Shown here one piece after another: positions 16,602-40,248 of a stretch of 42,616 nucleotides of DNA. The notes beneath the pieces are model-generated. The model was given only the letters and a program-made list of their open reading frames with translations, had not been told where the DNA came from and did no database searches. This stretch comes from Phycisphaerales bacterium (GTDB taxonomy: Bacteria; Planctomycetota; Phycisphaerae; UBA1845): NCBI GenBank assembly GCA_020344555.1, contig CP070827.1, forward strand, positions 3,159,828-3,202,443, in the 5' to 3' direction. The stretch's first letter is position 1; every line of letters begins with the position of its first letter. The translations under genes and the position numbers were made by a program.

Positions 16602-16797
16602 AGCGTTCGTGTTTTACGTGTAGCGGCAGGTCCCATGCCGGCCGTAGCCTCCCCGTCAATGACCTCGTCGTAGCGGAACCCCGACGGGCGTCCCGATGCA
16701 CGCCATGCGGAGTCGCCGTGTTGACCACATTCCTTGACTGACAGATGAGCGGAGGCAGGTGACTGTTTCGCCTGCTTTCAGGCTCTACAATGGTGGG

Positions 16798-17382
16798 ATG
16801 ACCCTCGAAGACCATTTGGCCTGCCCGAAATGTGGGTACGATCTCCACGGTATCCCTGAGGTTCGATGCCCCGAGTGTGGCTTCCGGTATGACGCGGCGG
16901 CGTTGCGTTCGATGGCGGCCTCGGCCGAATGGATACGGCTCGTCGCCGCTCGGATGCTGATTGTACGAGCCACCTTGGCAGCCGCCCTGACGATACCGGC
17001 CGTCTTGGATCATCTGGGCATCAGTGGTCTCAGCTTTTTCTGTGTGACCGCCGTAGCGTATTTGGCGGCATTCTTGACTTGGGCCGTACTCACAGATGTA
17101 TACACGGGGCCCACATCGATTCCGACCCTGCTCGTGGTGCTCCTCGGCTTTGGCGCGTTCATCAGGTGCATCGGGCACGCAGGGCCATGGGTCTCCCTTG
17201 CGGCTGGTGCAGTGTTCCTCCTCCTTGCGTGGATGGTACGCATCCGCTATTGGCCGACGTTGCCTCCTCCGAGCAACACACCATCCACTGAGCTGCGACG
17301 TTCGGTGGTTCGTCATAGCGTCGCTGGGACCGTCCTCCTCCTCGTCGCTTCGCTCCTCGTGGTGATTGTCCTCGTGCGGTAG
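16798..17382 (+). CDS. membrane protein with N-terminal zinc ribbon (CPKCGYDLHG-x6-CPECG)
   Basis: ORF 16759..17382 from a GTG. The ATG at 16798 gives MTLEDHLACPKCGYDLHGIPEVRCPECGFRYD, followed by four or five hydrophobic helices. The start choice is uncertain. Confidence 0.65.
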   Translation: MTLEDHLACPKCGYDLHGIPEVRCPECGFRYDAAALRSMAASAEWIRLVAARMLIVRATLAAALTIPAVLDHLGISGLSFFCVTAVAYLAAFLTWAVLTDVYTGPTSIPTLLVVLLGFGAFIRCIGHAGPWVSLAAGAVFLLLAWMVRIRYWPTLPPPSNTPSTELRRSVVRHSVAGTVLLLVASLLVVIVLVR

Positions 17383-17786
17383 GGCCCTCTTATTCCCACT
17401 CGGGAGGAAAGGGGGTCGGGAGTCGCGTCTTGCTGCTCGGCTGCCACGAGCGAGTCACGGAGTGACGACAGAGGCTAGTCCATAGCCGGAGCCAGGGGAG
17501 AGCAGGTTGCGCAGGCCAGGACAAAGCTCCGCACGGGCCGATACAGCCTTGTCCTCGCGAGAAGATGTGTCGTCCCTATCGGGGTCTCCCGCAAATGGAC
17601 GGGCTCGCATCCCGTGGCTTACACCAATGGGCTAAAGCCGATCGTCCCGGCGAGCCGGAACTTGAGCACACGGCATATTCCAACGGCCTGCTTGCACCAA
17701 TACCGCAGATGCGCTTACCTCGTTCCGTGACCATACACTGGCGGGGTCAACGCCGGCGGACCAGCGCGACCCCTCGTCACGAAAAA

Positions 17787-17946
17787 GTAGAATGTCCCGA
17801 ATGGCACTGCCTTAGCTCTTGGGGCCTCAGCAGGGGTCCTTGGGGTCTCTCTGGGCGCGCCCGGGGGTCGTCGTGTACGCCTAACGAGTCCCATGCCCCC
17901 CGTAACAGGGCGAAAAACCGCGGCAGTGCCATTCGTAGAATGTCCC
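17787..17946. other. composite repeat: direct GTAGAATGTCCC copies flanking a 13-bp inverted repeat that closes a ~135-nt G+C-rich segment
   Basis: GTAGAATGTCCC is at 17787-17798 and 17934-17945. GAATGGCACTGCC at 17799-17811 is the exact reverse complement of GGCAGTGCCATTC at 17921-17933. Confidence 0.6.
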
Positions 17947-18001
17947 CTTTCTCCTCTCAGGGTGATAATGCCCGGACGTGATCTGGACTGATTGAAACGA
18001 A

Positions 18002-18340
18002 AGGAGCCTGTTCGGCGAAACTGGTCCCTTAAAGACCTTCCGCTCGCCGGGGCGGCTCGTGGCCTTCTACGGGCTGGACCTGATGGTCTTTCAGACTGGG
18101 CAGTACGGCGCAGCACGACGCCGCATCAGCAAACCCGGATCGCCGGCCCTGCGGAACACGATGTGGTAGATGGCCCATCGGGCATGCTACCAAGAGGGCG
18201 ACCTGCGCGACTACCGGCTGCGCCGCAAGGGCGAGGGTCTATCCCACCGCTCAGCAGTGACCGCCCCGGGCATCAAGCTCTGCCACGCGACTTGGCGCAT
18301 CATGCCCGATCGCCGCGACTACCAGACCCAGCGGCCGACG
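18002..18340 (+). pseudogene. IS110-family transposase remnant (C-terminal third only, with an in-frame TAG)
   Basis: One frame reads ...FRSPGRLVAFYGLDLMVFQTGQYGAARRRISKPGSPALRNTMW*MAHRACYQEGDLRDYRLRRKGEGLSHRSAVTAPGIKLCHATWRIMPDRRDY. This matches the IS110 C-terminal pattern (aaYaGLxPxxxxSG...RISKxGxxxLR...yyxRlxxkGk...AxvAxaRKL). The TAG is at 18167-18169. No DEDD N-terminal domain was found upstream. Confidence 0.7.
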
Positions 18341-18430
18341 CCCAACTCCCGAGGAACCTGCAAGTGCCAAAGAGCAAACGAACGAAATTCTTCTACTTTA
18401 CCCTTGACTGCCTATAGCTGGTCTTTTCCG

Positions 18431-18898
18431 TTACGCAATCGTTGAATTCCGCACAGGCGTGCCGCACTCTGAGCAAAGGTCGGAAACGCTACCCCTGAGG
18501 TCGTAGCCGCATCGGATGCATAATCCGTGGGTCCGGCGGCGCCACCGTCGGGCTCGCCTCGCGCCAGAGATAGCCGGAAATGCTGCCGACAACCCGAAGA
18601 GCGCCCAGAACGGGACGGCGATCCAGATGATCTGGTCCCCGTCGTCCCTCTTGGGTATGTGTATTGCTGCCACTTCGAACCCCAAAAATGAGTGCAATTC
18701 CACAGGAATCTCGCCCTGGTCAAGCAGAGGCACGAAGTACGAACGAACGCACCGTGACGTCATTTGTATAGTGAGGCCCGTGGTACCGACATTGCAGCGT
18801 AGCCACCGCGGAGCAATCGAAGACGCCAGCCAAAGGGTCGAAACGACCACTAAGCACGCCGCACCCGACAGAACCTTAAGTCGGCTCAACACTCCCAA
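18431..18898 (-). CDS. small two-helix membrane protein with C-terminal zinc ribbon (CIRCGYDLRG-x5-CSECG); candidate immunity protein
   Basis: 155-aa ORF from TTG 18898, or GTG 18892 with a better-spaced GAGGG. It has an N-terminal helix, a second helix IIWIAVPFWALFGLSAAFPAI, the Arg-rich stretch RRARRWRRR, then the ribbon. It starts 77 bp downstream of the Rhs tip on the same strand. Confidence 0.6.
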   Translation of the reverse strand: MGVLSRLKVLSGAACLVVVSTLWLASSIAPRWLRCNVGTTGLTIQMTSRCVRSYFVPLLDQGEIPVELHSFLGFEVAAIHIPKRDDGDQIIWIAVPFWALFGLSAAFPAISGARRARRWRRRTHGLCIRCGYDLRGSVSDLCSECGTPVRNSTIA

Positions 18899-18974
18899 CC
18901 CTCGTGAACGAAAAGCGTAGCTTCCTTATTCCCCGTAGACTGGAAGACCTTGGGCTCCCGCGAGTCTTCAGCAT

Positions 18975-19790
18975 TCACACGGGACACAGCTCACACTCTT
19001 CTGTTGACTGTATAATAAATTGCCCCGTTGGCTCTGGTTCTTCGCGGTCGACGAACTCCCAGTCACAAACTTCTGTCCACGTAAAAAGTGTGAACGGTCG
19101 AGGACAGTCGCCACAAACACGGTGTATCTCACAATCCAATCCCCGCACTATCGCCTCCTCACACCCGTATGTGTATGTGTAGCACGGTATAGGAGAATCA
19201 TCCTCATTACAACCGGGAACGAAGCGAGTCAGGTTTCTCCGGATAAGCACGCAATTGATCAACGTCATCCACTCTTCAGGTTGGCAGTTTTGATGATGTA
19301 AGTACCCGAGGAGGAAACCCCCCTCACATTCCCGGCCTGAAGGATCCCTGGATGATAGAGGGCGTCCGCGCACATAGACATACGAGTCCATGCCATCTTG
19401 GTACGCACTCCTATCACCGTGTGTCACGTCGTACGGGTCGCGCTGCACGAACCGTCTCTTGCCGGGATCATACTGCCTGGTCCGGTTCTGGTAGCTCCTG
19501 ATCTCCGGTTCATGGAGCAGGCCCTGGTGCCCGAAGGGTTGGTCGACGGCGGTGGCGATGCGGCCGGGGTGGCGGGCTAATCCTTGAGGCAGTGGGTTGA
19601 ACAGGCCTGCATCGGTCGAGTCGTAGTCGCCATCGAAGTCCAGGTCCAGGATGCGGCACGCGCCCGACACGGTTCCTGTGCACGTGCTGCCCGGCGTGCC
19701 CTTGTCCGTGGCGTCCACGTCGCCGTCACCGTCGCGGTCCCCGTAGCCCGTTTCCTGATACACGGTCATCTCACCGTAGGGGCTGAGCAC
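18975..19790 (-). CDS. Rhs/YD-repeat core end plus Cys-rich C-terminal tip of unknown type (remaining ORF of a truncated rhs gene)
   Basis: The Rhs-associated core signature is FGHQGLLHEPEIRSYQNRTRQYDPGKRRFVQRDPY...YVYVRGRPLSSRDPSG. It is followed by ~118 aa with 14 Cys. The listed ORF begins at GTG 19790 only because the upstream frame is broken. Confidence 0.75.
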   Translation of the reverse strand: MLSPYGEMTVYQETGYGDRDGDGDVDATDKGTPGSTCTGTVSGACRILDLDFDGDYDSTDAGLFNPLPQGLARHPGRIATAVDQPFGHQGLLHEPEIRSYQNRTRQYDPGKRRFVQRDPYDVTHGDRSAYQDGMDSYVYVRGRPLSSRDPSGRECEGGFLLGYLHHQNCQPEEWMTLINCVLIRRNLTRFVPGCNEDDSPIPCYTYTYGCEEAIVRGLDCEIHRVCGDCPRPFTLFTWTEVCDWEFVDREEPEPTGQFIIQSTEECELCPV

Positions 19791-20110
19791 ATAGCACTCG
19801 ACCAGGCTGCTTCCGAGGTCGATCAGGCCGATGACGTTCCAGTTGGCATCCTGGTGGACGTAAGGTCGCCCTTGCCTTTCACCCGGATCATGACCAGCTC
19901 GTCAATATACTGCGTCCCGTGGGTGAACTGCTGATGATACGTCGTTTGCTCACCGAGACGCGTCTCCACGATCTTCTGACCATCATAATAATACCGGGTC
20001 ACGGCGTCAAAGTCGCCGGAATTTGTAACGCTTTTTTTGATCCGCCGGCCTCTCCCGTCGAATTCGGCGGTCTGGAAGGTGACGGCATCAAATGGCGGAT
20101 CTGTTGCCCC
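19791..20110 (-). pseudogene. upstream Rhs/YD-repeat fragment, frameshifted relative to 18975..19790 and truncated at its 5' end
   Basis: My minus-strand translation gives VGATDPPFDAVTFQTAEFDGRGRRIKKSVTNSGDFDAVTRYYYDGQKIVETRLGEQTTYHQQFTHGTQYIDELVMIRVKGKGD. Another frame then continues RPYVHQDANWNVIGLIDLGSSLVECYVLSPYGEMTVY. An in-frame TAG sits immediately upstream at about 20111-20113. Confidence 0.7.
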
Positions 20111-20134
20111 GACCTACTTGACTCCAGCGAGTTG

Positions 20135-20989
20135 CTAGCGCGTTTGCCGTTTCTGCGAGAGGATGACTATCAAGTCGCCCCTCGCACCGTCCGTACCGCC
20201 CTCCAGCGACGAGTAGAACTCCACTTCACCAAACCCACACTCGGCCAGCAAGGAGCGATACTGCTCATCGGTATACGCCTGCACGCTTGCCGAGTGGCGC
20301 GATACCTCGCCTGTCATCGAATCGATGACATAATAGCGTTCGATGCCTACGTTGCTCTCGGCATCCCAGAAAGGCTCCTGAAGGCACAGGTGCGGCTGAT
20401 CCGAGAACAATCCACTCTCGGCGGAGTACCACGAAGATGACCGCTCTCCCATCTTGCGGACTATCTCAAAGGTATGTGGCTCGAGAAGCAGAAGGCCGTG
20501 TGGCATCAAAGCCTCATGGGCTTTCCCGAGAATACCGCTCGCGTCCGCCGGGCGAAAGACGTTAAACTCGCCGAAGATGAGCAGGACGAGGTCATAACCG
20601 CGACCGTAGTCTGCAGTCCGAATGTCCTGCTGAACGTACGTGCATGGAAGACCGTCCTTCTCAGCCTGCCCCTTGGCGTGGGCTATCGAAGCTGGAGAGA
20701 AGTCAATGCCGACACACTGATGCCCAAGCCTCGCCAGCCGGTTGCAATACAATCCCGGGCCGCAGCCCAGATCGAGAATCCGCGACGGATTCCCCTTCAA
20801 AACCTGATTGTGAATCCACTTTACGTGGTTATCAATGGTCTTGAAACGACGACTGGCGGCGTCGCCTTCCTGGGACAAATGCTCCTCGAGCATTCGCCTA
20901 CTGAAGCTCGGATCATCCCAGGGAATCTTCTCCCCCTCCGCCCATGGTTTTGGGACACCCTTCCTGCGAACAACATCCAACAGGTTCAC
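20135..20989 (-). CDS. class I SAM-dependent methyltransferase
   Basis: Motif I ILDLGCGPGLYCNRLARLGHQCVGIDFS, then an acidic post-I residue and DLVLLIFGEFNVF (motif II/III-like). Confidence 0.85.
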   Translation of the reverse strand: MNLLDVVRRKGVPKPWAEGEKIPWDDPSFSRRMLEEHLSQEGDAASRRFKTIDNHVKWIHNQVLKGNPSRILDLGCGPGLYCNRLARLGHQCVGIDFSPASIAHAKGQAEKDGLPCTYVQQDIRTADYGRGYDLVLLIFGEFNVFRPADASGILGKAHEALMPHGLLLLEPHTFEIVRKMGERSSSWYSAESGLFSDQPHLCLQEPFWDAESNVGIERYYVIDSMTGEVSRHSASVQAYTDEQYRSLLAECGFGEVEFYSSLEGGTDGARGDLIVILSQKRQTR

Positions 20990-29333: not shown

Positions 29334-29408
29334 CCCGATCATGCCTCGAACCATGCAAGAACAAGCCAGGCGGCAGCATCCCAGGCGGTGTGGGAAGGAG
29401 CGTCGGCC

Positions 29409-32400
29409 ATGAGGTGCAAACTGATCCAGGCCGCTCTTATCGGGCTGTTGTCCAGGGGCCAGGGCCTGGCGGGGGTGCTTTTAGCGGGTACGGTCGCCTT
29501 TGCTCACGGACAATCGTCTTCAGCATTCGCTCCGCAGGCAGCGCTGGATAGGGGTAGCAGCTCCAGCCATCCGGTCATCCCTGATGGTGGGATCTGGACG
29601 GAGCCACCCGTCCTGCTCTCTCCCGATGCTCCCGTGCACCGCGTCGTTGTCCGCGGGGGGCCCGGTGACGGTACCGTGGTCAGTAGGGTGGCCAGCAGGC
29701 TGGAGACGACCTGCGAGGGAGACCCAAGTGCGGTCTACTGCAATACGTTGGGTTCCACAACGTTCGGGCCGCCAGACAACCTGGCAGGCGCAGGGATAGG
29801 GGATGATATCGCCCTGGCGAGTGTCGGTGGATGCATCCTGGACCGCTACGTGATTCGAGTTACAGGCGATAAGGATCGCGACGGCTCCGGTGTGGCTCTT
29901 GGGGCCTACACGGTCAACTTTGGTCTTTACGAGATGTGTCCGGGTGCCGGTGCTGACCATCCGATCGAAGGAACCGCAGATCAGGTCACGGTTCCTGCTG
30001 AGGAAGCCGGCATCATTAAGGAAATCGTATTCGAGCCACCAGGCCGGGTGGAACTGCCACCCAGTCTGTACCTGGGCGTAAGCTTCAGCCGAGAGAGATG
30101 CGGCGTGGTTATGGGCTCCCCGGCCACGTTGGGCTACTCCGCTGATCGGTTCGACTTTCCAGGGTCTCCTTGTTCCTCGACACTCGGTGGTTTTCCCGAA
30201 GCTCCCCATGCCAGCTTCTATGCCGAGATTTACACCGAGGGTGACTGCCCGGATGCGTTCGTGGGCTACAAGAACACCAACCACGCCGGCGACTACTACA
30301 CCCCAGGTATTCGAGTGTGGTTTGCGGATGATGTTCGATTGGGTGTTGCCGAATGCAACATGGTGGCTTACGAGATCGCTCACAAAGGTGATGGCATCAT
30401 CGGCGTTGACCTTCGGAGCTTTCTCAGCGACACCGATCCCAGCCGCGGCGGTCTGATTCCCGGCACTCAACTGGACTGCTTCTCCAGCGGGAGCGACGTG
30501 CAGGTTTGCCGCAAGGAGTTCGACACGCCGATCCCGCTTCCCGAATCAAGTTTCTATGTCGCCTACCAGGCCAACAGCAGCTCCGTCGGTCCTCTTGTCA
30601 CCTGTAAGCAGGCAAGCGTCGGAAGCACAGAGGACTTGTGGGCCGTTTACGACGGTGGCCAGTGGCGGCTCGCTGATTTCGGCGACACGTGTTATTCCGG
30701 TTTTGAGATAACAATCACGTGTGAGGGTCCCCCACCCGCAGGCGCCTGCTGCGACATGATTCTGACTGACCACGCGGGTGAGTCCGTGTGCCGCGAGCTG
30801 CCTCAGATGAATTGCGCATTCCCTCAACTGTGGCAGGAAGGAGCACTATGCGAGTCGGCTTGCCTCGGCGGCGAGAGAGATGGGCAGCCGTGCACGCGGC
30901 AGGCCGATTGCCCGGAAGGCGACTGCCCCGGGCCGTTTGAGCACCCCTGCGGGCTCTCCGCCTGTTGCACGCCGGACCTGGACTGTTTTGATCTGACTGA
31001 GAACGAGTGCCATGACCTGCTTCCCGCTCCCGATTTGCGAATCTACCAGCGAGGACAGTATTGTGGGGACGAGTGCCAACGCTGTCCTACTGATGCCTGC
31101 CTCGGGCGGGCGGGGAATTGCACTGCAGCCTCGCAAGGTCTTTGTATCGGTGGAAGCCAGGAGGGGGAGCCGTGCGACTTCGGCTTGCCCTGCCGCGAGT
31201 CCCTGTGTTGTATCGGCGGAGGTACATGTACGGGCGAGCCGGGCTGTGGCGACCAGATTTGCTGCACCGATGTGTGCGCCGTTGACGAGTTCTGCTGTAC
31301 GGTTCATTGGGATGAGGTATGTGCGTCGCTTGCCGAGTCCGTCTGCGTGTGCAGCTACGGATCAAACGACGAGTGTTTCAGTCCGCTCCCCAACCGGGGA
31401 GCCTACTTGCTCAACGTGCCCAGCGTCACGCAGATCGATTTGACAGACGCCACCGAAGACGCCGAAGATCCCGGCTTCTGTTGCCATTTGCAGGAACCGG
31501 GCGCGCAGGGTGTTGGCACTCGATGGTACAAATTCGTGGCCCCGTCACCCGTAGGGGCGGCGGGCGAACCTCCGTCGGTCAAGTTGAGCCTGCGCAACAT
31601 CAGCGGTTCGTCGGATCGCCAGGCCGGCGACTCGCTGATGGCCGTGTTTACGGCATCCGATCCGGATCGAGGGCTGTGCTCTGACCTCTCCGTATGCAGC
31701 GTATCCGCCCAGGATTGCGCCGATGAGTCACCCTGCATGTTGGACGAAGAGACGGCCTGCGAGACGCTCATTACTACTGCCTGCAACGATGATGCGACGG
31801 CCTCGGGCGCGACCGCTCAGGCATTACAGTCAGGGAACTCCGAAGTGTGTGTCCCGGCGCTTGTACCGGGTCATACGTACTATGTCATGGTCGCAGCGAA
31901 GACCGAGGTGAATCGAGGTTATTATACGCTGACGGTCACACATCATTGCTCAGTTACGCCGTCCGACACTGTGCCTGATTGCGACGCCGATGGGCTGCCG
32001 GATGTGTGTAAGCTGCCGCCGCTCGGATCCAGTACAGACTGTAATGCAAACAGCATTCCTGACGAGTGCGATGTGGTGGTGGCCAACAACTGCTGTGAGA
32101 CCGGCCACGGAGCCGGTTGCAGCCATCCGGATATTGAAGAGTGTGTTTGTGAATACGATCCCTACTGCTGTGACACAGAGTGGATTGGTTCTTGCGTTTA
32201 CCTGGTGAACCACTACGGTTGCGGTGACTGCACTGCGCCTGCAAGCAACGATTGCAACGCCAATGAAGTTCCTGACGAATGTGATCTGGCCGACGGCACC
32301 TTGCACGACGCAGATGGCAATGGTATTGCCGACGAATGCCAACCAGGGAAACTCGCCTCCGTCAAATGCTGCATTTCTGAAAAGGATCTCATCAGGATCG

Positions 32401-33110
32401 GTTTATGCTTGTCCGGCCCGGGCGATACAAACATCCCGTCCGCCTGTGGTTCCATAGGAACCTGTGTTCTGGGGTTTGCTGAACAGGGGCTTATCATTGA
32501 GGAGGTGTGCGACCCGGAGGACCCGGAGATACCGGACGAACCGAGAGCAGTGTGCATATCGTGGGCTGCGCGGGAGGCGTCGATCAAGCAGGAGTGCGTG
32601 GCATCCCCCAACACGGATTTCAGCCTTTTTGAAACGTTGGACGCCGATCAGGATGGCGACTTGGACCTGCGGGACATGGCCGCGTTCCAGCGCACCTATG
32701 AGTCAGTACCGAAGGAGGTCCAAAGCGGCGCAAGGCTGGTGTTCGTCGAGTGCTGCGTTCCGGCAGCCGGCATGGGCGTTGGACAGAAGCGGGTCTCCGG
32801 TGCGGACGTTGCCAAGGACGCGGTCGCAGCCGGCTCCCAACCGGTTTGCACCCTTGGCTTTTCCGGGATGATCGAGCCCGGCGATTATCTGTATGAATTG
32901 TGTCGTCCCGGGACCACGCCCAAGCCCCCAGAAGGCTCGACCTGCGTCTCATGGAGCGCCGAAGATGTCCCGATTGCGTTCCTCTGCGAAGGGGCCGGCG
33001 TCTGCGAGTACAGATGCCCCACCGGGGATGACGGGAGCACCGACCCCGAAGGATGTTTCGCAGATTTTGCCGGTCTGGAAGGTCCGTCCGAAGCCCTATC
33101 ACCAGAGTAG
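29409..33110 (+). CDS. very large secreted modular Cys-rich protein with CNANxxPDECD repeats and a dockerin/EF-hand-like motif
   Basis: ORF from GTG 29388. The ATG at 29409 has AAGGAG 8 nt upstream. Signal-like MRCKLIQAALIGLLS... Motifs include GACCD, two copies of the VCxxDxxCCxxxW module, DCNANSIPDECD and DCNANEVPDECD, LDADQDGDLDLRDMAAFQ, and an NDECFSPLP module like those in 24839..26647. Confidence 0.85.
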   Translation: MRCKLIQAALIGLLSRGQGLAGVLLAGTVAFAHGQSSSAFAPQAALDRGSSSSHPVIPDGGIWTEPPVLLSPDAPVHRVVVRGGPGDGTVVSRVASRLETTCEGDPSAVYCNTLGSTTFGPPDNLAGAGIGDDIALASVGGCILDRYVIRVTGDKDRDGSGVALGAYTVNFGLYEMCPGAGADHPIEGTADQVTVPAEEAGIIKEIVFEPPGRVELPPSLYLGVSFSRERCGVVMGSPATLGYSADRFDFPGSPCSSTLGGFPEAPHASFYAEIYTEGDCPDAFVGYKNTNHAGDYYTPGIRVWFADDVRLGVAECNMVAYEIAHKGDGIIGVDLRSFLSDTDPSRGGLIPGTQLDCFSSGSDVQVCRKEFDTPIPLPESSFYVAYQANSSSVGPLVTCKQASVGSTEDLWAVYDGGQWRLADFGDTCYSGFEITITCEGPPPAGACCDMILTDHAGESVCRELPQMNCAFPQLWQEGALCESACLGGERDGQPCTRQADCPEGDCPGPFEHPCGLSACCTPDLDCFDLTENECHDLLPAPDLRIYQRGQYCGDECQRCPTDACLGRAGNCTAASQGLCIGGSQEGEPCDFGLPCRESLCCIGGGTCTGEPGCGDQICCTDVCAVDEFCCTVHWDEVCASLAESVCVCSYGSNDECFSPLPNRGAYLLNVPSVTQIDLTDATEDAEDPGFCCHLQEPGAQGVGTRWYKFVAPSPVGAAGEPPSVKLSLRNISGSSDRQAGDSLMAVFTASDPDRGLCSDLSVCSVSAQDCADESPCMLDEETACETLITTACNDDATASGATAQALQSGNSEVCVPALVPGHTYYVMVAAKTEVNRGYYTLTVTHHCSVTPSDTVPDCDADGLPDVCKLPPLGSSTDCNANSIPDECDVVVANNCCETGHGAGCSHPDIEECVCEYDPYCCDTEWIGSCVYLVNHYGCGDCTAPASNDCNANEVPDECDLADGTLHDADGNGIADECQPGKLASVKCCISEKDLIRIGLCLSGPGDTNIPSACGSIGTCVLGFAEQGLIIEEVCDPEDPEIPDEPRAVCISWAAREASIKQECVASPNTDFSLFETLDADQDGDLDLRDMAAFQRTYESVPKEVQSGARLVFVECCVPAAGMGVGQKRVSGADVAKDAVAAGSQPVCTLGFSGMIEPGDYLYELCRPGTTPKPPEGSTCVSWSAEDVPIAFLCEGAGVCEYRCPTGDDGSTDPEGCFADFAGLEGPSEALSPE

Positions 33111-38954: not shown

Positions 38955-40040
38955 TCAGGGCTGCGCCGCCATGGGCTTTGCATGCGTTACGGTAAACGGA
39001 CTGGAAAGTGGCGGCAGGCTGTGCTCGGCTCGCAACTGGTTTTGAGCGGGCAGCATGTCGACCAGCTTCAACGCCTGTGCCTGTATCACCTTACCGCTGA
39101 CAAGTCCGATCGGGATCACGTCCTGTGGCTGGAGCCGTGGGTTCTGACCCGGATCCGGTGACCAGATAACAAGCCACAGGTTCGGATCGGCGCCGGGAAG
39201 ATCAACGCCGTGGTGGGTGAACACGAAGTCGCCAAGGCGATGGGCAACGGTTCGGCGTGGGAGAGCTTCGGCGGCCATTCGGACGACCGTCTCCTTTCGC
39301 TCGACCGACAGCTCGTCGAACTGTGACAGACTGATGTCAGCTAGAGGCACGGACTCCGCGCTGGTCAAGGAATCGAACGAGACGAAGTCGGCGGAGACAA
39401 GGTGGCCATCGAGTGCCATCCCTATGGCGTGATCAAGGGGGAGGCCGCTATTGCCTTGGGAATATGCAACCAGGGCGTTCAGCAATTTTCTTGTTTCAGC
39501 GGCGTAGACCGGGCGCGCTTGCGCCATGTACAGGGTCAGCCCCACGCCCAGGACGGTGCCCAGGAACAGCAACGCGGCTATGATTACGACGAGCCGGGCA
39601 TGGCGGCCGCGTCGGGCAAGGCGCTCGGTGTCTTCATCGTGTTTCGCCCGTGCGACTCGGGCCGTATCGGCCGCGCTGAACTCCAGCCCGCATTCGGGGC
39701 AACGGGGATCAACCTGACCCTGCAGATCGTAACCACAGCGATGACATCGAAACCCTCGACGTTCGAGGACACGGGCGCGCTCGAAGAGAAGAAAATACGG
39801 GACCCATACCGCCAGGAATATCAACAGCACAATGGGGAGGTCCCAGCTCAGGGGGACCCTCACGATCGATGTCACTGACAATAAGATGATAATCAACACG
39901 GCGACGCCAAGGAGGCGCCGGCGCACGTTAACGCCCAAAAGCGAGCCGCAACCGTTGCATGTCCAGCTCCCCCACGCCGTGGTGAAGAACACGCGACTCC
40001 ACGGAATCGGTTCGCGGCAGTTGGGGCATTCAATCGGCAT
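38955..40040 (-). CDS. membrane protein with two zinc ribbons (CPNC...CNGC and CHRCGYDLQG-x5-CPECG) and a C-terminal extracytoplasmic domain
   Basis: ORF 38955..40205. The ATG at 40040 gives MPIECPNCREPIPW... It has two helices, a second ribbon, a third helix LVVIIAALLFLGTVLGVGLTLY, then ~200 aa of soluble domain. Confidence 0.65.
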   Translation of the reverse strand: MPIECPNCREPIPWSRVFFTTAWGSWTCNGCGSLLGVNVRRRLLGVAVLIIILLSVTSIVRVPLSWDLPIVLLIFLAVWVPYFLLFERARVLERRGFRCHRCGYDLQGQVDPRCPECGLEFSAADTARVARAKHDEDTERLARRGRHARLVVIIAALLFLGTVLGVGLTLYMAQARPVYAAETRKLLNALVAYSQGNSGLPLDHAIGMALDGHLVSADFVSFDSLTSAESVPLADISLSQFDELSVERKETVVRMAAEALPRRTVAHRLGDFVFTHHGVDLPGADPNLWLVIWSPDPGQNPRLQPQDVIPIGLVSGKVIQAQALKLVDMLPAQNQLRAEHSLPPLSSPFTVTHAKPMAAQP

Positions 40041-40248
40041 TACTGAGTCTCCGGTGCTTCTTTGGCATTGCTCATTCTTCTCATAGGATACCTCACGCAA
40101 GTCAATCAGCCACAATGAAGACATGTTCTTACGCTGGAAGCCGCAGGTCCAAAACCGGTCAGCCATCCTCTCTTGACGCAACGACTTGACGTCGCTGCCG
40201 AACACGTGATGTGTGGTCCAGTGTCTCTAATGGAACCGCCCGAGGACG

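Follow-up and report, generated by a model that had tools for sequence, protein, structure and literature searches.

A displaced, frameshifted Rhs tip rich in cysteine, with a likely immunity gene, in a Phycisphaerales bacterium

We analysed a 42,616-nt stretch of contig CP070827.1 from a Phycisphaerales bacterium (the whole stretch is hereafter the window), which carries on its minus strand a solitary, 5'-truncated orphan Rhs cassette spanning 20113-18975, or 20113-18431 with the partner gene that follows it. The cassette ends in an open reading frame (ORF) of 271 aa with a GTG start (18975-19790), whose last 119 residues form a Cys-rich variable tip. Only the last ~260 aa of the Rhs core remain in this copy; the long YD shell is missing, with ~115 aa of its terminal repeats left. 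The 5' part of the cassette (19863-20113, minus strand) is read in another frame (VGATDPPFDAVTFQTAEFDGRGRRIKK...VKGKGD by translation and tblastn) and holds the last YD-type shell repeats (VGATDPPFDAVTFQTAEFDGRGRRIKK...YYYDGQKIVE...YIDELVMIRVKGKGD), which join the frame of the ORF at GDL/YVHQDANWNV. Taken by itself the locus is ordinary, a displaced, decaying Rhs tip with a likely immunity gene.

The break between the two frames is evident from three-frame translation and from tblastn matches in two frames: relatives are all continuous at GDL/YVHQD, and hence the window lacks one base between 19862 and 19863 (minus strand). Logan contigs from run X1, which holds 99% of the sampled words of the region, showed zero differences over 19637-20200 and 18400-19568; these independently built contigs share the frameshift, which is therefore present in the reads, and a diverged related contig from run X3 carries the base missing at 19862/19863. 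A programmed frameshift was rejected as unsupported, the site being a simple 1-nt deletion relative to all relatives. With the shell, the export signal and the reading frame lost, the window copy cannot make an exportable toxin, and the intact Rhs gene implied by a first-pass annotation of the letters alone gives way to one that is 5'-truncated, frameshifted and devoid of its YD shell.

In the same run X1, depth over the core (19498-19863) reached up to ~13 times that of the tip (126x versus 9.5x), indicating that this sediment community contains the core in many copies. In one X1 contig position 18428 is followed directly by 19522, and the intervening 1,093 nt (partner gene, tip and last part of the core) are absent; with only 29 nt on the shorter side of the join, it could stem from a junction between paralogues or be a k-mer artefact.

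Homology to other cassettes begins ~11 nt past the stop codon of an S-adenosylmethionine-methyltransferase gene (20135-20989), the next gene being lgt. The 5' boundary, at 20123, is common to two cassettes (L025 and L009) of another metagenome-assembled genome (MAG), at 86-90% nucleotide identity, and L009 starts ~25 nt after a preceding gene of the partner type; the common boundary and this layout suggest that the duplicating unit is apparently the truncated module plus the partner gene. The window cassette stands alone: tblastn found no other Rhs core module in the 42.6 kb, Pfam found no Rhs or YD domain in ten large ORFs of the window, and the placement in an array downstream of a full-length rhs gene is not seen here. 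Around the cassette, a search for flanking repeats and signs of mobile elements returned chance-level repeats only; the whole window had zero tRNA or Rfam matches, and a promoter and terminator scan gave no signal above the shuffled-sequence background.

The Rhs-associated core domain proper (AVDQPFGHQG...RQYDPGKRRFVQRDP...DPSG; 19335-19550, minus strand) was recognised by NCBIfam TIGR03696, which scored 46.2 bits (cut-off 32.5; E=4.9e-12) over residues 81-152 of the 271-aa ORF, and by matches to Rhs proteins in the PDB (E=3.5e-8 to 2e-3), and a Pfam scan of the same ORF returned no match. The last 70 positions of our core profile matched the solved Rhs core 8h8a (E=3.5e-8), then 8cp6, 7q97 and 8uy4, and DPSG fell, in the alignment, at the C terminus of cleaved cores of known structure, 8h8a and 8cp6 among them. 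From this and from family alignment A1, DPSG (19335-19346, minus strand) marks the end of the Rhs core and carries the second conserved Asp of the autoproteolysis motif: both QRDP and RDPSG occur, and A1 shows no variation at D226, D257 or G260. The arrangement resembles the aspartyl autoprotease plug of Rhs and Tc toxins (8h8a, 8cp6, 7q97, 8uy4) in its R-x-R-x-YDP...RF-x-x-x-DP...DPxG signature with both Asp kept, and differs from the solved cores, as far as the sequence motif tells, in that the two Asp stand further apart, with 31 residues linking them, and in an insertion of ~60 aa, dockerin-like in sequence, upstream of the motif. By likeness to the solved Rhs cores, cleavage is expected one residue beyond DPSG.

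That insertion (~63 aa; 19578-19766, minus strand) was delimited by its invariance across the family and by PDB profile matches. It contains two Asp-rich loops of DxDxDGxVDxxD type, GDRDGDGDVDATD at 19704-19742 and LDLDFDGDYDSTD at 19611-19649, set between PYGE and QPFGHQG, invariant family-wide and with two invariant Cys between them. The loops had earlier been described as lying just before the core and as an uncommon insertion; both lie inside the Rhs core region and, being invariant across the family and dockerin-resembling, they are a standard part of it. Positions 109-169 of the core profile matched type I dockerins (2vn5_B, E=0.005; 5lxv_B, E=0.006). With a profile of the insertion only, five of the seven top PDB matches were dockerins (E 0.007-0.07), in an alignment spanning both calcium loops, and the other two were serine-protease chains. 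Pfam Dockerin_1 (PF00404) gave sub-threshold matches in 8 of 12 members (best E 0.024). AlphaFold2 modelling of the 260-aa core from a 14-row alignment reached a mean predicted local distance difference test score (pLDDT) of 38.2, too poor for a fold search. The insertion is best described as a dockerin-like two-loop calcium module, and not as a proven dockerin. Like type I dockerins (2vn5_B, 1daq, 2mte), it has a pair of Asp-rich, putatively calcium-binding loops, each of 12 residues and spaced as in a dockerin; it differs from them in that it falls below the Pfam threshold, replaces the inter-loop helix by what looks like a Cys-bridged stretch, is embedded in an Rhs core and has no known cohesin partner.

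Beyond DPSG lies the variable C-terminal tip (RECEGG...ELCPV; 119 aa plus stop codon, 18975-19334, minus strand), defined by translation, composition and homology searches; the interval 18975-19331 corresponds to the stop codon and the 118 residues after the residue following DPSG. The tip peptide given in the first-pass annotation is the exact minus-strand translation, with 12 Cys rather than the 14 counted there (10.1% of 119 aa), at tip positions 3, 17, 28, 42, 51, 58, 68, 74, 77, 90, 114 and 117. Two CxxC pairs are formed (C74/C77 and C114/C117), and the eight other Cys lie outside them. The tip is acidic (22 acidic and 8 basic residues, zero Lys), and an open frame of 119 codons has a chance of p ~0.002 at its base composition.

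The tip had been called unassignable and free of any recognised motif, and every search agreed. A Pfam scan, including Tox-/Ntox-, phospholipase A2 (PLA2) and metallopeptidase families, returned no family at E<=1; the best match in a PDB sequence search had E=0.26; the CCxxHDxCY and HExxH motifs are absent from the tip sequence; and a word-indexed homology search yielded zero candidates. Exhaustive phmmer against 1.84 billion representatives recovered only the protein itself and four tandem-repeat proteins; three of these were inspected and are repeat artefacts, and the fourth has the same multi-stretch pattern. By tblastn the tip had no match below E about 1 in 61 related loci. The 122 tips of the family form 82 blastp clusters, and in these it is a singleton. 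When the tip was modelled by itself, AlphaFold2 gave a pLDDT of 30.6, too poor for a fold search.

The tip lies in a patch that had been noted by eye as visibly lower in G+C, which windowed G+C and a codon-position plot confirmed: 18975-19331 has a G+C of 0.501 versus 0.609 for the whole window, the standard deviation for 357-nt windows is 0.030, only 0.05% of such windows are as low as the tip, and the lowest anywhere is 18963-19319 (0.496). Within the cassette, G+C is 0.50 in the tip and 0.64 in the core part. By codon position (first/second/third), the tip has 0.559/0.432/0.517 and the core portion of the 271-aa ORF 0.658/0.493/0.770, third-position G+C (GC3) in neighbouring genes being ~0.68. 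The dip lies mostly at GC3 and so reflects a difference in codon usage and not merely in amino-acid composition; the codon-adaptation value is low for both the tip and the partner gene. This is not peculiar to the window tip. Across 55 related cassettes mean G+C was 0.613 in the core and 0.542 in the tip (tip lower in 52 of 55), and mean GC3 was 0.765 and 0.552, respectively (tip lower in all 55). Ever since the first work on Escherichia coli rhs, cores have been known to be G+C-rich and their extensions A+T-rich (Jackson et al., PMC2935791); the low G+C of the tip is the ordinary Rhs core/tip contrast and needs no special explanation.

With the frameshift corrected, the conserved 260-aa part matched 213 proteins, and the best 120 of these (147-454 aa, 49-85% identity), where named, are proteins of Planctomycetota or Phycisphaerae MAGs. 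One of them (P0039) is the window's own gene call, and a paralogue labelled Phycisphaerales bacterium (P0026) lies on the same 5.25-Mb contig. Scanning species-representative genomes brought up 56 loci, and almost every one of them carries a Phycisphaerae or Planctomycetota label. Tandem cassette arrays are common among them, as in L002 with six cassettes in 15 kb, and several cassettes also occur at L003, L005, L011, L016, L024, L029, L043, L048 and L050. A distant subfamily (L048, L049, L050 and L051; core 35-38% identical) occurs as arrays of three, and its tips are ~200 aa long with 0-3 Cys, GC3 being ~0.90 in the core and ~0.45-0.55 in the tip.

Five loci encode full-length parents of 2,386-2,534 aa, with 2,067-2,186 aa in frame upstream of the core, whose protein identity to the window core is 64-67% for L018, L023, L019 and L008 and 44% for L037. 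Their N-termini have a hydrophobic segment, an AxA-like site and then Cys, and look like signal peptides. Pfam found RHS_repeat only, or no match, in L018 and L023. Such proteins bring to mind the teneurin-like proteins (TLPs), described in the available text of PMC13018210 as Sec-exported YD shells with polymorphic C-terminal domains of ~15 kDa and, downstream, a gene for immunity; one such domain is toxic only when sent to the periplasm. The likeness lies in giant, apparently signal-peptide-exported YD shells with no obvious injection machine and in hypervariable small C-terminal domains, mostly of unknown function there, with an immunity gene, in our family a candidate one, alongside. They differ in that the NHL, FN-plug, TTR and TIP domains of TLPs went undetected by Pfam in L018 and L023, where remote homology is possible, and in that Planctomycetes go unmentioned in the available text, where Cys-rich tips and orphan arrays are no theme.

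Following the tip after a 76-nt spacer (18899-18974, from the ORF coordinates) is the partner gene (18431-18898, minus strand), whose intact frame encodes 155 aa. From hydropathy, sequence and weak zinc-ribbon Pfam matches, its product, a candidate immunity protein, is ordered as a first transmembrane (TM) segment, a variable stretch of ~60 aa with two Cys, a second TM segment, RRARRWRRR and a C-terminal zinc ribbon (CIRCGYDLRGSVSDLCSECG) of pattern CxxCGYDLxG...CxECG. The positive-inside rule would place the variable stretch in the periplasm. Database homologues cover the C-terminal half only and are all hypothetical; the half predicted to face outward is thus no less unique than the tip, as one would expect if the two were toxin and immunity protein. 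A profile of the C-terminal TM/zinc-ribbon module, searched against 731 kb from related loci and the window, matched 42 ORFs, 40 of them on the cassette strand, and among the 58 cassettes with enough downstream sequence 21 have this partner type within 1.6 kb downstream on the same strand, where ~3 would be expected by chance. Given this recurrence, the 155-aa partner is likely an immunity protein. Co-variation of tips and downstream ORFs could be followed in 15 similar tip pairs only, of which three had similar downstream ORFs, a comparison that is underpowered. At L003 (4367-13367) six paralogues of the TM/zinc-ribbon partner and two Rhs cassettes share one array, which looks like a poly-immunity locus.

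Richness in Cys is a trait of the whole family, for which we found no description in the searched literature. In 81 sibling tips the median Cys content is 11.5%, versus 0.8% in the core, and 58 of the 81 have at least 8% Cys; the first tip Cys typically comes 2-9 residues past DPxG. Reading in a wrong frame as the source of these Cys was ruled out, since the tips run on in frame from conserved cores in independent assemblies. The number of Cys is odd in 71 of 91 non-redundant Cys-rich tips and even in 20 (p=7e-8), or odd in 45 versus even in 16 with one vote per cluster (p=3e-4), and the window tip, with its even 12, is an exception to this tendency. Among the 1,175 Cys of the Cys-rich sibling tips, CxxC occurs 90 times and CC 91 times.

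These counts bear on whether the tip could instead be a domain binding zinc or another metal in a reducing cytoplasm, for instance a zinc-knuckle nucleic-acid-binding or nuclease-type toxin delivered across the inner membrane. The first-pass annotation had raised metal binding as an option, and the two CxxC pairs fit it, as do the near-equal frequencies of CxxC and CC in the siblings and an odd Cys number that purely paired disulfides would not give. The eight further Cys outside CxxC sit less well with such a domain; the parents look Sec-exported, the core carries a probable calcium-loop module with a conserved Cys pair, the partner's variable domain would, as predicted, face the periplasm and not the cytoplasm, and Pfam and the PDB gave no zinc-finger or nuclease profile match to the tip. 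On balance we favour disulfides and hold a cytoplasmic metal-binding tip to be quite unlikely.

Some sibling tips offer leads, and leads only, to enzyme-like activities. Three (P0036, P0112 and P0017) have PLA2 profile matches with E 0.04-0.27, below Pfam thresholds, two of them with a CCxxHDxCY-type motif and one with WCGPG. A metallopeptidase/HExxH group (P0029, P0031, P0032, P0070, P0071, P0077, P0085 and P0115) includes one tip with metallopeptidase matches at E ~2e-4, just under the gathering cut-offs, another with a weak Tox-MPTase4 match only, and several more with a bare HExxH. Type VI secretion system (T6SS) Tle phospholipases and their Tli partners are periplasm-acting effectors with envelope-located immunity. 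An envelope-acting toxin countered by a periplasm-exposed immunity protein would be a likeness to the present family, in which three sibling tips match PLA2 weakly and below threshold; the delivery route is another one, and the window tip has no lipase or PLA2 motif.

Small size, hypervariability (82 clusters among 122 tips) and richness in Cys would equally suit polymorphic secreted ligands in kin recognition or signalling, the TM/zinc-ribbon partners being their receptors, in which the variable domain would face outward and the conserved zinc ribbon, in the cytoplasm, could pass on a signal. Against such a role stand the PLA2-like and HExxH motifs of some siblings, the order of core, tip and downstream gene together with the arrays, which match polymorphic toxin-immunity systems (PMC3150448, PMC2935791), and partner arrays of several paralogues (L003) that look like poly-immunity loci. 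We consider ligands improbable.

Our preferred reading, to which we give a probability of roughly 60%, is that the window holds a silent reserve toxin-immunity cassette whose disulfide-rich tip would act outside the cytoplasm. In the full-length parents, the last ~260 aa would close the shell, with YD repeats, the dockerin-like calcium module and the aspartyl autoprotease motif leading up to DPxG. Such members would be exported by Sec with the tip enclosed in the shell; the aspartyl motif would cut after DPxG plus one residue and free the tip, which would then fold with disulfides and harm the envelope of neighbouring cells, in the periplasm or at the membrane, and the periplasmic domain of the partner would neutralise it in kin. 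The 118/119-aa tip of the window would most likely be a disulfide-stabilised toxin of new fold. The window copy itself would be silent and displaced; recombination across the ~750 nt of conserved core could rejoin its tip to a parent rhs gene, and the intact partner alone is plausibly active, protecting against neighbours that deploy the same tip.

Action outside the cytoplasm, suggested for this tip from its Cys alone, gains support from context rather than from direct proof: the signal-peptide-like N-termini of the parents, the Cys-rich tips of the family, the calcium module with its Cys pair, the predicted periplasm-facing domain of the partner and the enzyme-like matches of siblings all point that way. 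Several observations weigh on the other side. The tip lacks a homologue, a confident structure and a catalytic motif, so that toxicity is deduced from position and family only. Its copy is frameshifted and without an export signal, and may never be expressed; no RNA runs holding the region were found. Zinc could equally be bound through its two CxxC pairs, and the odd Cys number in 71 of 91 sibling tips does not fit a simple all-disulfide picture. The five parents compared are all from MAGs other than the source genome of the window, the signal peptides and membrane topologies were called by eye, from a hydropathy scan and by the positive-inside rule, and the partner type follows only ~36% of related cassettes.

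The same decay raises the prospect that the cassette is plain genomic debris, a displaced tip whose sequence and small neighbouring ORF have no present function. The frameshift and 5' truncation, the low GC3 and codon adaptation of tip and partner, and the lack of homologues and of RNA evidence agree with this, and such relics are common at rhs loci (PMC2935791). Yet the frames of the tip (119 codons, p ~0.002) and of the partner are both intact, the partner retains every hallmark of its family, and contig pieces of tip and partner with ~100% identity recur in X3, a run of a second study. We regard debris as unlikely. Still less probable, and in our view very much so, is that an internal start gives rise to the 271-aa protein, which would pair with the partner inside the cell in the manner of a toxin-antitoxin module. 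The open frame with its GTG start does survive the frameshift, and an orphan Rhs of Salmonella provides a precedent (PMC7043789); against this, promoter signal did not rise above the shuffled background, RNA data were not found, and a Cys-rich tip with a membrane partner whose variable domain is predicted to lie outside would misfit a cytoplasmic pair.

A silent reserve cassette has counterparts in enterobacteria, where degenerate, frameshifted, dissociated tips with partial cores accompany rhs genes (Jackson et al. 2009, PMC2935791) and orphan modules have been viewed as reservoirs from which recombination can swap tips (Poole et al. 2011, PMC3150448; PMC2935791). Like these orphans, the Phycisphaerae cassettes have a partial, G+C-rich core that ends in a hyperconserved motif, followed by a low-G+C variable tip and then by a small gene; fragment arrays, some of them frameshifted, and the proposed reservoir role are common to both. 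They differ in that the window copy is solitary beside housekeeping genes and not downstream of a full-length rhs gene, that the parents look Sec-exported rather than T6SS-linked, and that systematically Cys-rich tips come with a dockerin-like core insertion and a two-TM zinc-ribbon partner.

In the searched literature we found no description of several features of this Phycisphaerae family: tips that are almost all short and rich in Cys, mostly with an odd count of it, the dockerin-like insertion of the core, TM/zinc-ribbon partners and Phycisphaerae parents of apparent Sec type. If the tips are envelope-acting, disulfide-rich toxins, they would make up a tractable set of new small toxin folds and a test case for the delivery of cargo from Sec-exported Rhs cocoons without T6SS or Tc machinery; how Sec-exported YD shells deliver their cargo is left open in the available text on TLPs (PMC13018210). 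More speculatively, and with more doubt than belief on our part, the Sec-exported Rhs cocoons of Phycisphaerae may carry a very large, fast-turning-over library of disulfide-rich mini-proteins that attack the envelope of neighbours from outside the cytoplasm, with a dedicated family of two-TM zinc-ribbon proteins as matching immunity, one unpaired Cys per tip, in keeping with the odd numbers, that tethers or activates the cleaved tip, and the dockerin-like module mounting the cocoon on a surface partner. Such a library would include new folds like the window tip and possibly secreted-PLA2-like and metallopeptidase-like forms, and it would be a bacterial counterpart of venom-peptide diversification, with an Rhs delivery that needs no injection machine.

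Elsewhere in the window, a 1,240-aa ORF on the plus strand (29388-33110) had no Pfam match at E<=0.001. The ~1 kb downstream of the partner gene (17400-18430) has no recognisable gene, RNA family or likeness to related loci, and its listed ORFs look non-coding. The CxxCGYDLxG...CPECG motif recurs in two further ORFs, one on the plus strand (16759-17382) as an N-terminal ribbon followed by TM segments and one on the minus strand (38955-40205) as an internal module; both are away from any Rhs module, and the motif seems common in this lineage.

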